Shown piece after piece: positions 34,736 to 36,545 of a DNA stretch of 43,680 bases. The notes below the pieces were generated by a model. It made no database searches. It saw only the letters and a program-made list of their open reading frames with translations, and was not told where the DNA came from. Both the position numbers and the translations under genes were made by a program. Source of the stretch: Deltaproteobacteria bacterium. GTDB lineage: Bacteria > Myxococcota_A > UBA9160 > SMWR01. The stretch spans positions 1 to 43,680 of the forward strand of contig JAHEEJ010000001.1 of assembly GCA_024640705.1 (NCBI GenBank), read 5' to 3'. Numbering within the stretch: the stretch's first letter is position 1; each line of letters opens with the position of its first letter.

Positions 34736-35187
34736 GGTCCGGCGTCGCGCACGAGCGGCCTACGCTCTTGATCGTCGATGACGAGGCCCAGATCCTGTCG
34801 GCATTGAAGCGCTCTCTCTACAGGGAGGGCTACGAGATCATCACTGTGGAGACTGCCGCAGCCGCGTTGCGCATCCTCGAGCAGCAACGCATCGATGTCA
34901 TTCTTTCCGATCACAAGATGCCGGGTATGAGTGGCGTGCAGTTGCTGGAGCGAGCGGCCGAGATGAGCCCGCACACCGTTCGAATGCTGATCACGGGTTG
35001 GACCGAGGAGATTCCGCCCGAAAGGCTTCGGGAGATCGGGATCTGCGCGTTGGTCACCAAGCCGTGGAATGACGCGATGCTCAAGTCGACCTTGCGCCAG
35101 GTGATGGGCGGGGAGCAGGCGCCTAATCCGCGGGAAGGCGACTCAGATATTCCAGGTCGGTCTTCTGACTATTCTTTGCGCCGATGA
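34732..35187 (+). CDS. Single-domain CheY-like response regulator
   Basis: LLIVDDEAQ, DVILSDHKMPGMSG, MLITGW, LVTKPW. TTG at 34732 overlaps the kinase TGA (TTGA). The alternative ATG at 34696 lacks an RBS. Confidence 0.8.
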   Translation: MRSGVAHERPTLLIVDDEAQILSALKRSLYREGYEIITVETAAAALRILEQQRIDVILSDHKMPGMSGVQLLERAAEMSPHTVRMLITGWTEEIPPERLREIGICALVTKPWNDAMLKSTLRQVMGGEQAPNPREGDSDIPGRSSDYSLRR

Positions 35188-36412
35188 GCAACAGGCGGTA
35201 GCGAAGGTTGCGACCGCGGCTGTAGTAGATGCGTCCCTTCCCGGCGAAACCGAGTTCGTAAATCGAGAGTTGCGGCGGTAGTCCGCCCACCTTGCGCCGG
35301 ATCGAGGCGAGTTCGGAGTCGTCTGCGAGACGCTTGATTCCCTCTTCGGCCTTGAGCTTCATGGTTTCGTCGCGCAGCGCGACCATGTCTTGAATCACGC
35401 GATCGTCGAACTCCACGGTCTTGTAGAGCGTGCGCAGTCGACGAGACAGCTGTTCGACCGCGCGCGTGCGGCTTCCGCTGCGGCCTTCGCCAGCATTCTT
35501 GGAGGCCGTCTTCAGACGCGCCTGAAGATCCTGGATCTCATCTTCCTTGCTGCTGAGGTCGTCGCTCGCTTCTTCGAGCAGTTCTTCGAGGGCCTGTCGC
35601 TCCTGGTCGAGTTCGATCGATCGCGCTGCGGACTGTCGCAGCTCGGCCTCTCGTTCCGCGAGATCGGAAAGCTTTCCGCGCAGGGCCAGTCGTTCGTGCT
35701 GGAGTTCGCGGATTGCCTCGGCTTGCGATCGCTCGGTGGGCTCGAGTTTGCCCAGGCGCTCGCGCACCTCTTTGAGTTCTTCCGCGATCTTTTCCGTGCG
35801 CCGCGCGGTTGCTTCTCGCGCGGTCAACGCGGATTCGAGCAGCCGACTGTCGCGCGCGGTGACCGCGCGGTTGTAGAAGAAGAGGGAGGTGATCAAGATC
35901 GCCCCATAGGCGAACAACATCGCAACGGCGAGATTTCCCGTGGGCGGAACCGAAACCTCGAGCGAGTAGCTGGCCGGCAGCAGTCGAACCGCCTCGGTCA
36001 TGCTCGCAACCGGGTCGAGCGTTTCCGGGGCTGGGATGAACCGGTCTTCGAGGTAGAGGGGGGTGATGCCATCGGCGCCGTAGACGTGGATGCTGACGCG
36101 CGCCTCCCCAACCTGGATCCACTGGGACGACGTCACCAACTCCTGGATCCGGAATTGGATCTGCGAAATGATCGGTCCGTCCGCAGGGCTGACGAGCAGC
36201 GCCCGCTCGATCTCGGCCGCGAAGTGGCGCTGGAGCATGATCTCGGTCAGGTCCAGGCTCACGACGTAGACCGCCGCGAAGGCGAAGATCGACAGGCCGA
36301 TGATCCGGAACGACCTCAGGCCTCCGAGGCTGGCCTCATCCGGCTCGGCGGCCGAGCTGGGTAATAAACCCGATTTTGCCGGTACCGTCTCCGCCATAGA
36401 TCCCCAGAGCAT
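35123..36412 (-). CDS. Bitopic/2-TM membrane protein with cytoplasmic coiled coil and C-terminal RelE/ParE/HigB-like domain
   Basis: TM1 FRIIGLSIFAFAAVYVVSL, ~110-aa extracytoplasmic segment, TM2 LAVAMLFAYGAILITSLFFY. About 150 aa of heptad-like E/R/L/A-rich sequence follows. The last 100 aa (35123-35425) read YKTVEFDDRVIQDM...YELGFAGKGRIYYSRGRNLRYRLLLIGAKNSQKTDLEYL. The start is uncertain: TTG 36466, ATG 36412 or ATG 36397. Confidence 0.65.
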   Translation of the reverse strand: MLWGSMAETVPAKSGLLPSSAAEPDEASLGGLRSFRIIGLSIFAFAAVYVVSLDLTEIMLQRHFAAEIERALLVSPADGPIISQIQFRIQELVTSSQWIQVGEARVSIHVYGADGITPLYLEDRFIPAPETLDPVASMTEAVRLLPASYSLEVSVPPTGNLAVAMLFAYGAILITSLFFYNRAVTARDSRLLESALTAREATARRTEKIAEELKEVRERLGKLEPTERSQAEAIRELQHERLALRGKLSDLAEREAELRQSAARSIELDQERQALEELLEEASDDLSSKEDEIQDLQARLKTASKNAGEGRSGSRTRAVEQLSRRLRTLYKTVEFDDRVIQDMVALRDETMKLKAEEGIKRLADDSELASIRRKVGGLPPQLSIYELGFAGKGRIYYSRGRNLRYRLLLIGAKNSQKTDLEYLSRLPAD

Positions 36413-36545
36413 ACCGTTCGAAGCCCCGCCCCCAAGGGCCCAGCCGATTCCGCCGGTTCGCGCCAAAAAAAGGAAATCAATCGCTTAGGGCCGCAGTTGC
36501 GGGAGTTCCAGCGGCCCGATGCGGCCAGGCTAGTATCCGCCCATC

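Follow-up and report, generated by a model that had tools for sequence, protein, structure and literature searches.

We find that a gene on the minus strand of a Deltaproteobacteria contig (JAHEEJ010000001.1, positions 1 to 43,680, hereafter the window) encodes a membrane protein whose C-terminal domain is, as judged by profile comparison and predicted fold, a divergent homolog of the HigB/Gp49-type (COG3657/TIGR02683) toxins that lies outside the curated thresholds of those families. RelE/HigB toxins cleave mRNA at the ribosome, and RelE-superfamily domains are, with few exceptions, known from small toxins that sit on mobile elements under the control of an antitoxin; here the domain ends a receptor-like chain of two predicted transmembrane (TM) helices, an external domain and a coiled-coil stalk. 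From the sequence, and by analogy with known proteins, we tentatively propose that the protein may act as a signal-gated, membrane-tethered translation-interfering module, with a receptor-like layout and the HigB-like domain as its output, a reading that we consider plausible. Residue numbers throughout refer to the 447-amino-acid (aa) translation of this gene's open reading frame (ORF) from its TTG codon.

The C-terminal domain belongs with HigB/Gp49-type toxins in sequence and predicted fold

A 166-sequence alignment of the C-terminal domain was compared with a canonical profile built from 14 annotated plasmid toxins and a Limnobacter sequence, and hhalign aligns the domain with these 15 TIGR02683-type toxins at 93.8% probability (E=1.7e-7), over beta2 to alpha3. 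The controls are clean, with 0.1% probability for the reversed template and no more than 1.5% (E of at least 0.033) for 30 column-shuffled templates, and each of the two subfamilies described below reproduces the match separately, the Myxococcota-type sequences at 89.4% over 79 columns, which is almost the whole domain, and the Desulfobacterota-type sequences at 92.3%. A hidden Markov model (HMM) of the domain, searched against diverse Gp49 domains from the supplement of Gerdes 2025 (PMC11980606), finds the Limnobacter TIGR02683-type toxin at 15.6 bits, compared to a maximum of 10.7 bits among 1300 shuffles. In the opposite direction, the domain of the window matches the NCBIfam RelE/ParE-family toxin model TIGR02683 at E=0.0017 (18.7 bits), and this sub-threshold match recurs in 36/36 Myxococcota-type members (best 9.5e-5) and, with the register unchanged, in 5/10 Desulfobacterota-type members (best 2.2e-4). 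Pfam Gp49 (best E 0.009) and ParE_toxin (best E 0.003) match weakly and in a minority of members, phrog_3445 'toxin' is matched by both subfamilies, and no unrelated family recurs among the weak library matches of the domain.

An earlier note, made by eye from the letters of this stretch, had likened the C-terminus to E. coli RelE and its ending to Gp49/HigB-type toxins. The strings that it quoted are all found in the translation (VEFDDRVIQDM at 351-361, YELGFAGKGRIYYS at 403-416 and RLLLIGAKNSQKTDLEYL at 424-441), and the Gp49/HigB-type assignment is right in kind, with significant similarity limited to one Gp49 subgroup; the match to E. coli RelE itself is statistically undetectable, as is that to the actinobacterial HigB clade. 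For the latter, the sequence of M. tuberculosis HigB-TAC was verified against PDB 7awk and its clade was then collected for profile comparison. hhalign gives 2%, then 0.7% probability against this HigB-TAC/Gp49 clade, and real clade members score no better than shuffled ones with the domain HMM. An alignment by eye to Rv1955 was accordingly rejected as proof of homology, and the residue mapping to HigB-TAC given below goes through the validated TIGR02683-type profile alignment. PDB sequences searched with phmmer, and with hmmsearch using a profile built on the C-terminal domain, return nothing relevant; these negatives carry no weight, because a bona fide toxin of the TIGR02683 subgroup, that of Limnobacter, likewise matches no PDB toxin by sequence.

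An AlphaFold2 (AF2) model of the domain alone (36 sequences, template-free; mean predicted local distance difference test, pLDDT, 83.9; pTM 0.78) shows the element order helix, beta1, alpha1, alpha2, beta2, beta3, beta4, alpha3, which is the RelE topology. The top 37 Foldseek matches of this model in the PDB belong exclusively to the superfamily that had been claimed for it, all being RelE/HigB/ParE/YafQ/YoeB toxins or the CARF-RelE fusion Cami1, among them E. coli RelE, S. pneumoniae HigB, V. cholerae ParE2 and YafQ, archaeal RelE, YoeB, HP0892 and Cami1 itself (8phj), at probabilities of 0.9-1.0 and TM-scores of 0.45-0.70, with modest E-values (2.5e-3 to 1e-1). With the full 447-aa model the top 11 matches are HigB2, HigB and ParE. 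A fold search of viral proteins (BFVD) returns two small proteins at high probability, both unnamed and uninformative.

We weighed these results against the idea that the RelE resemblance is spurious and that an unrelated alpha/beta domain belongs to a coiled-coil scaffold of envelope or exopolysaccharide (EPS) assembly. Unmet curated thresholds, the lack of a PDB sequence match and of similarity to the actinobacterial HigB clade, Foldseek E-values of only 1e-3 to 1e-1 and a neighbourhood of glycosyltransferases or PrsT/EPS genes all speak for it. The profile match with its clean controls, reproduced by each subfamily separately, four independent libraries that indicate the same superfamily only, and a template-free model that gives only that fold make it very improbable.

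A receptor-like layout with predicted N-in, loop-out, C-in topology

The minus-strand ORF 35123..36466 of the ORF list spans 447 aa when read from TTG. The N-termini of homologs align with M24 (424 aa, beginning MAETVPAKSG) or with M19 (429 aa), and because homologs begin at the ATG of residue 24 (or at residue 19), the actual coding sequence is most likely 35123..36397. GC content by codon position (0.67/0.45/0.77) is coding-like and matches that of neighbouring genes, and the feature is not a chance ORF, as shown by over 1000 matching database proteins and by a domain order that persists at identities as low as 21-27%.

Hydropathy confirms the two TM helices that had been placed around an outside loop of ~110 aa, with the loop now at ~100 aa, and the AF2 model (30-sequence alignment; mean pLDDT 77) contains the proposed coiled coil as part of one continuous helix (178-321) formed by TM2 and the coiled coil, at a length of ~120 aa and not the ~150 aa of the earlier estimate (Table 1). 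Since Arg/Lys residues flank TM1 on its N-terminal side and TM2 on its C-terminal side and the loop is acidic (6 K/R vs 12 D/E), the positive-inside rule predicts an N-in, loop-out, C-in topology. An SFR motif just before TM1 is nearly invariant among homologs. The external domain is modeled with helices at 99-113 and 152-162 and strands at 123-129, 136-139 and 166-172 (pLDDT 70-92), its invariant positions in the Myxococcota subfamily are P94, G97, Q102, I103, W116, L162-L163-P164 and V173-P174, and it is presumed to be a sensor or partner-binding domain. The stalk carries an invariant LEELL motif, with E289, L293 and E294 invariant across both subfamilies; its library matches (UPF0242, SMC/Rad50, LmuB/JetC) are all non-specific coiled-coil matches. 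No CARF or other Pfam/NCBIfam domain is found in residues 1-335, no HAMP, HisKA, HATPase or MCP domain in the protein, and no ribbon-helix-helix (RHH), helix-turn-helix (HTH) or other antitoxin-like domain by Pfam/NCBIfam.

Table 1 Coordinates of the gene, of the predicted segments of its product and of the convergent neighbour
Feature	Window position	Strand	Residues	Basis and remarks
Whole gene	35123..36397	-	24-447	424 aa from ATG at M24 plus stop codon 35123-35125; starts of homologs, profile of GC at third codon positions
N-terminal cytoplasmic tail, predicted disordered	36305..36397	-	24-54	pLDDT <50 for 1-47; R51/R54 before TM1
TM1 (predicted)	36236..36304	-	~55-77	hydropathy peak >1.6 at 59-69; part of AF2 helix 44-89
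External (periplasmic) alpha/beta domain, ~100 aa (predicted)	35933..36235	-	78-178	net acidic
TM2 (predicted)	35870..35932	-	~179-199	hydropathy peak at 186-190; R200, R205 and R208 follow on the cytoplasmic side
Cytoplasmic coiled-coil stalk, ~120 aa (predicted)	35501..35869	-	200-322	single helix, pLDDT 86-96; E/A/L/R-rich
Flexible basic/Gly-rich linker (predicted)	35462..35500	-	323-335	pLDDT <50 for 323-331; least conserved segment
C-terminal HigB/Gp49-like RelE-superfamily domain, 112 aa	35126..35461	-	336-447	AF2, Foldseek, hhalign
Junction helix		-	336-347	AF2
beta1		-	351-353	AF2
alpha1		-	355-363	AF2
alpha2		-	367-382	AF2
beta2		-	400-404	AF2
beta3		-	411-417	AF2
beta4		-	423-430	AF2
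alpha3		-	431-443	AF2
Receiver-only response-regulator gene	34696..35187	+		Pfam Response_reg; convergent, 3' ends overlap by 65 nt

The mRNA pocket appears largely retained, with two family-wide losses

The mRNA pocket of HigB-TAC comprises K58, E66, R68, N73, R77, F93, K95, Q98 and K99, and that of VcHigB2 comprises R51, R64, Y82 and K84, of which K84 is the most important (3000-fold effect on mutation). Mutating K95, R77, E66 or Q98 of HigB-TAC, or K84 or R64 of VcHigB2, abolishes or reduces toxicity, and the R51A variant of VcHigB2 has measurable activity, 170-fold lower. In the domain described here, R343, Y348, L364, E374, L380, R391, K392, E404, R412, Y414, G429, K431 and Q434 are invariant across both subfamilies, R343 lying in the junction helix, and R391, K392, E404, R412, Y414, G429, K431, N432 and Q434 are putative functional residues. 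The beta half of the domain carries a net charge of +5 to +11.

A check of RelE-type catalytic residues gives a divided answer. E404 corresponds to the Glu of the 'sELR' motif (HigB-TAC E66) and is invariant, R412 and Y414 retain the 'YRVY' motif (R412 = HigB-TAC R77 and VcHigB2 R64), G429 and K431 retain 'GGdK' (K431 = HigB-TAC K95 and VcHigB2 K84), Q434 retains the Gln of 'TQ' (HigB-TAC Q98), and D437 the Asp of 'DI'; K435, the equivalent of HigB-TAC K99, is kept in Myxococcota only. Lost are the Arg of 'sELR' (HigB-TAC R68, VcHigB2 R51, RelE K54), which is G406 here, and the aromatic residue at the F93/Y82 position, and N73 is without an equivalent because the beta2-beta3 loop is shorter. 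As judged from these alignments, the pocket would be largely but not fully retained, a state that fits an altered or attenuated nuclease and, no less, a module that only binds, and loss of the 'ELR' Arg throughout the family may have attenuated the domain.

The two losses, together with the stable inheritance of the gene although it has no antitoxin, speak for a different account, in which the domain is an exapted, non-catalytic module that tethers ribosomes or mRNAs, or that sequesters a HigA-like DNA-binding protein at the membrane in the manner of an anti-sigma factor, its output then being localisation or control of transcription in place of mRNA cleavage. Such behavior has parallels, as M. 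tuberculosis HigB2 and HigB3, in which several pocket residues are missing, are non-toxic yet disturb translation at high dose, and ParE-type proteins with this fold are not RNases. The invariant residues are nevertheless the equivalents of the mRNA-pocket residues K95, R77, E66 and Q98, and the beta-sheet face is still strongly basic, a pattern that exceeds what a scaffold needs; no conserved HigA-like gene is seen near the target; and loss of the 'ELR' Arg need not abolish catalysis, because VcHigB2 R51A keeps measurable activity. We regard a non-catalytic module as possible but, on balance, doubtful.

The architecture is conserved in two phyla

A database search returns more than 1000 matches, of which the best 120 are 52-95% identical, nearly all 418-430 aa long, and derive from metagenome-assembled genomes labelled Myxococcota or 'Deltaproteobacteria'. 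When the C-terminal domain alone is used for an exhaustive HMM search, 228 clusters at 50% identity are found, 179 of them at E <=1e-10. In the top 150 clusters the domain is nearly always at the C-terminus of a 360-430-aa protein, and the short matches resemble contig-truncated fragments, with no stand-alone toxin among them. A second, divergent subfamily of ~382-420 aa, 21-27% identical overall and with an identical order of TM, external domain, TM, coiled coil and C-terminal domain, occurs in sulfate-reducing Desulfobacterota, including the cultured Desulfosalsimonas propionicica (WP_181551043.1). A frameshift joining two genes, which the earlier note had named as a way in which the architecture could be an artefact, is ruled out, as the full architecture is kept in hundreds of homologs from Myxococcota and Desulfobacterota.

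The C-terminal domain is the most conserved region of the protein, with a mean column identity of 0.86 in Myxococcota compared to 0.58-0.73 elsewhere and 0.47 in the linker, and of 0.67 in Desulfobacterota compared to about 0.5 in other regions. Relatives are encoded in 233 GTDB species-representative genomes, and the best 80 of these 233 are all from uncultured organisms, mostly labelled Myxococcota or Deltaproteobacteria (UBA9160, TMED72/88 and others). Members go by 'hypothetical protein' in the databases or bear names that are coiled-coil artefacts. A single JGI record, 'putative component of toxin-antitoxin plasmid stabilization module', shows that automated annotation has occasionally caught the toxin link. 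Several GTDB records with close homologs (L010, L013, L016, L019, L040-L042 and others) are titled 'uncultured Spirochaetales', 'Opitutales' or 'Gammaproteobacteria' and are probably mislabelled bins.

Comparison with known toxins and receptors

The closest recognizable relatives are the TIGR02683/COG3657/PF05973 toxins (e.g., Limnobacter A6GLV3 and pBP136 WP_011666377, 'addiction module killer protein'), which share a homologous domain with the same beta-alpha-alpha-beta-beta-beta-alpha fold and corresponding motifs, namely the Glu of 'sELR', 'GYRVY' compared to 'GRIYY' in the target, and 'GGdK.tQ.kDI' compared to 'IGAKNsQKtDL'. The canonical toxins are 95-110-aa stand-alone proteins, mostly plasmid-borne (the subgroup is found on 913 plasmid records), with a partner gene directly downstream in 14/14 cases, 12 of them annotated 'addiction module antidote protein'; the target domain, in contrast, is the C-terminus of a 424-aa membrane protein encoded by a chromosomal, syntenic gene, and differs in having no antitoxin, in the lost 'ELR' Arg and in bit scores far below the curated cut-off. 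HigB-TAC (Rv1955; 7awk, 7nbu), VcHigB2 (5ja8) and S. pneumoniae HigB (6af3) have the same fold, including the long C-terminal helix; of the pocket residues of HigB-TAC and VcHigB2, the target family has invariant equivalents of K95/K84, R77/R64, E66 and Q98 and lacks those of R68/R51 and F93/Y82, and its beta2-beta3 loop is shorter.

Two known designs link this fold to a sensor or a membrane. Cami1 (8phj; TMq 0.63) likewise carries a C-terminal RelE fold in a larger, dimeric sensor protein with no antitoxin, but it is soluble, its CARF domain senses cytoplasmic cA4 and it belongs to CRISPR type III loci, whereas the target has no CARF domain, is predicted to sit in the membrane, with a coiled coil and a domain in the periplasm, and lies outside any CRISPR or defence context. 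ToxM (Gerdes 2025, PMC11980606) combines a cytoplasmic RelE/ParE-superfamily domain with a TM helix and an extracytoplasmic domain, but its toxin domain is N-terminal, a single TM helix follows, and the part outside is disordered and rich in proline and carries a C-terminal domain; the RHH/HTH antitoxin ToxR is encoded upstream on the same transcript. The target family has no antitoxin, two TM helices and a coiled coil. In outline the target resembles sensor histidine kinases and chemoreceptors, which are N-in, have two TM helices that enclose a periplasmic domain, and connect these to an output domain by a long helical stalk in the cytoplasm, but it carries a toxin-like fold as output, without HAMP, HisKA, HATPase or MCP domains.

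Gerdes 2025 (PMC11980606) catalogued multidomain BECR-fold proteins and left out those without an identifiable antitoxin; the target family is absent from its tables, as far as these are covered, one supplementary table in part. A full-text search of the literature found no other description of the family. Sensor- or membrane-fused RelE proteins are already known, and the present family is distinguished by the receptor-like layout, the lack of an antitoxin, the syntenic inheritance in two phyla and the link to PrsT described below.

A syntenic chromosomal gene with no adjoining antitoxin

The window is ordinary chromosome, with genes for glycogen metabolism, ATP sulfurylase, a GAF-GGDEF protein, an EF-G paralog, CoaX, BirA, NadC, sigma factors and AnmK. 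The target gene is monocistronic and divergent from a methyltransferase gene (36546-37349, plus strand), and the convergent response-regulator gene at its 3' end closes an operon (31358-35187) that encodes a sigma54 activator, a PAS histidine kinase and the response regulator. Among related loci with enough flanking sequence, 49/53 have the response-regulator neighbour and, on the other side, a GT4-methyltransferase-GT4 cluster; the arrangement recurs in relatives down to 43% identity, and the response-regulator neighbour is absent at Desulfobacterota-type loci. This synteny and the housekeeping surroundings show that the target is a stably, apparently vertically inherited chromosomal gene and not a mobile addiction or defence cassette.

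The lack of a small adjacent antitoxin gene, remarked on at the outset for this stretch, is confirmed in the window and in every related locus examined. Two candidates in the window were rejected, namely small ORFs at 36300-36488, which overlap the start of the gene and are not conserved, and the convergent response regulator, which belongs to the kinase operon. PADLOC returns only non-specific coiled-coil matches on the window, which contains no CRISPR/cas genes, and scans of the region for Rfam families, tRNAs, promoters and terminators found nothing.

These observations bear on a further alternative, that the protein is a self-contained defence or abortive-infection toxin, held in check by its own N-terminal part as a 'cis-antitoxin' or by an unlinked antitoxin and freed by phage or membrane damage. 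Its homology to bona fide addiction-module toxins is in keeping with this, multidomain, membrane-bound BECR toxins and single-gene toxin-antitoxin fusions are known (Gerdes 2025, PMC11980606), and the invariant junction helix (R343, with Y348) just before beta1 could mask the domain. The fixed synteny among housekeeping genes is not that of a patchy mobile island, there is no antitoxin-like domain or adjacent antitoxin gene, PADLOC gives coiled-coil noise only, the layout is the reverse of that of ToxM and lacks a ToxR, and the sole nearby antitoxin, a YefM inserted at one Desulfobacterota-type locus (L091), comes with a PIN toxin of its own. We consider a defence role unlikely, since the gene is distributed, and surrounded by other genes, in the way of a conserved chromosomal gene.

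The response-regulator ORF is 163 aa long in the window compared to 127-151 aa in relatives, where it overlaps the target gene by 0-65 nt; the two genes might affect each other by antisense or transcriptional interference.

Desulfobacterota-type loci frequently pair the gene with a PrsT-like neighbour

The TPR lipoprotein PrsT is found together with the sigma54 two-component system PrsK/PrsR and with EPS loci (PMC1569441) and is required for floc formation in Aquincola (PMC9850573). At Desulfobacterota-type loci the target homolog often follows, and in one case overlaps, a gene for a PrsT-like TPR protein. In D. propionicica (L087) it overlaps by 4 nt the end of a gene for a 769-aa TPR protein with a lipoprotein-type signal, which scores 456 bits with TIGR02917 (PrsT) against a cut-off of 312. 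A homologous TPR gene precedes the target homolog at L088, where genes for an XrtA-type (TIGR03007-like) chain-length determinant, a tyrosine-kinase-like ATPase, a priming transferase and Wza-like export follow downstream; the TPR proteins of L088 and L089 score 243 bits, below the 312 cut-off. At L091 the PrsT-like gene (E=6e-162 to the L087 protein) is split from the target homolog by a YefM-PIN cassette. Relative to the PrsK/PrsR/PrsT set, some Desulfobacterota homologs adjoin a PrsT-type TPR lipoprotein and XrtA-type EPS genes, and the window has no PrsT nearby; its histidine kinase and sigma54 regulators fall below the PrsK/PrsR cut-offs. The PrsT-like neighbour was not found at the intermediate locus L090.

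Other features of these loci were noted. The cassette at L091 (3967-4541) consists of a Phd/YefM antitoxin gene and an overlapping PIN/VapC-like ORF exactly between the PrsT-like gene and the target homolog; its YefM was rejected as the antitoxin of the target, as it has its own PIN partner and the cassette is an unrelated insertion. On its opposite strand L088 carries another PrsT-like TPR gene (16-2316). L087 encodes, upstream of its PrsT-like gene, an 81-aa Cys-rich protein (3427-3672; CPDCFSCQMCADNRCHVC...), and the corresponding position of L088 (2833-3651) encodes an unrelated 272-aa protein with no family match. At L090, which carries the intermediate member P0148, NFACT/RqcH-like ribosome-quality-control and cold-shock-domain genes (3332-5440) precede the target homolog, and two sigma54 activators and a sigma70-family gene are kept on the other side; this translation-related neighbourhood may or may not matter.

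A proposed envelope-to-ribosome signalling module

In the reading that we favor, the protein would act as a transmembrane receptor whose output is translation interference in place of a kinase. A periplasmic or envelope cue, which in Desulfobacterota would probably arrive through the PrsT-like TPR lipoprotein encoded just upstream, would alter via TM2 the geometry of the coiled coil, which is probably dimeric, and this change would expose or hide the basic beta-sheet face of the HigB-like domain. The exposed face could then dock in the A site of membrane-near ribosomes, where mRNA would be cleaved or at least blocked, with the outcome of locally throttling the synthesis of envelope, exported or EPS-related proteins. 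In this proposal no antitoxin would be needed, because tethering and control in cis take its place, much as CARF controls the RelE domain in Cami1. A more specific version holds that the output is an active, antitoxin-free HigB-type ribosome-dependent mRNA nuclease, switched by an envelope signal that is relayed by PrsT where present and transmitted through a dimeric coiled coil, and cleaving membrane-proximal mRNAs; taken as a whole, we think this version rather unlikely, if possible.

Several results weigh against such a module. The curated TIGR02683 cut-off is not reached, with 18.7-21.6 bits across members compared to 62.85, and the domain of the window itself has no Pfam match. The 'ELR' Arg position is G, V, L or T in all members and the F93/Y82-equivalent aromatic is replaced by an invariant Gly (G429), and because of these two losses the domain may be catalytically dead; K392 is a tentative equivalent of HigB-TAC K58, beyond the confidently aligned part. 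For the external domain, Pfam/NCBIfam give no match and Foldseek no confident fold assignment, so that no sensor fold is recognizable, and both the pairing of the coiled coil into a dimer and its part in signalling are assumptions. The PrsT-like neighbour is missing at L092 and L093, that is, from 2/5 distinct Desulfobacterota-type contexts, and tblastn finds no PrsT homolog in the window or at any Myxococcota locus. The conserved Myxococcota neighbours lie outside the target's operon, so that a functional link to them is at most a possibility, and a sigma54 promoter upstream of the target, sought because two sigma54 activators are neighbours, is not apparent, with scores that equal background and inconsistent positions.

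If the more specific version is correct, the family would be a previously unrecognized class of transmembrane signalling protein, in which a domesticated toxin exerts direct, spatially confined, post-transcriptional control of the synthesis of envelope or EPS proteins. With Cami1 and ToxM having recently linked the RelE fold to sensors or membranes, the target family would be a third design, in which the toxin fold takes the kinase position of a transmembrane receptor, with no antitoxin and apparently vertical inheritance in two deltaproteobacterial-type phyla. An active domain would connect an envelope signal directly to the local destruction of mRNA at the membrane and be a clear case of toxin domestication, and an inactive one would show reuse of the ribosome-binding face of a toxin. 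The recurrent PrsT link is a lead on the poorly understood regulatory proteins of PEP-CTERM/EPS systems, and the idea is testable because one member is in the cultured D. propionicica.

Other genes of the window and related loci

Beyond the target gene, the methyltransferase gene overlaps the 3' end of the convergent GT4 gene 37232-38632 (minus strand) by about 118 nt, and the same overlap occurs in relatives (e.g., 5050-5826 and 3860-5167 at L001). Between AnmK and the GT4-methyltransferase-GT4 cluster sits, in the window and in those related Myxococcota loci that were inspected, a conserved gene for a small hydrophobic protein of ~85 aa with no family (window 40594-40848, minus strand; L001 1549-1806; L005 1739-1996; L006 1551-1811), 93% identical between the window and L001. 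The region is signalling-rich, because many two-component and sigma54 genes are found near a gene (16716-19004, minus strand) for a 762-aa protein in which tandem GAF domains are followed, at the C-terminus, by a GGDEF diguanylate-cyclase domain. A large glycogen/alpha-glucan cluster occupies 2469-14362 on the minus strand and includes genes for glycogen phosphorylase, 4-alpha-glucanotransferase, the branching enzyme GlgB, a GlgX-like debranching enzyme and a GlgC-like nucleotidyltransferase. The EF-G paralog (21222-23276, minus strand; 684 aa) has all five EF-G domains, lies amid biosynthetic genes and may be a second, specialized EF-G; the gene after it (20062-21168, minus strand) encodes a 368-aa protein that has no Pfam match.

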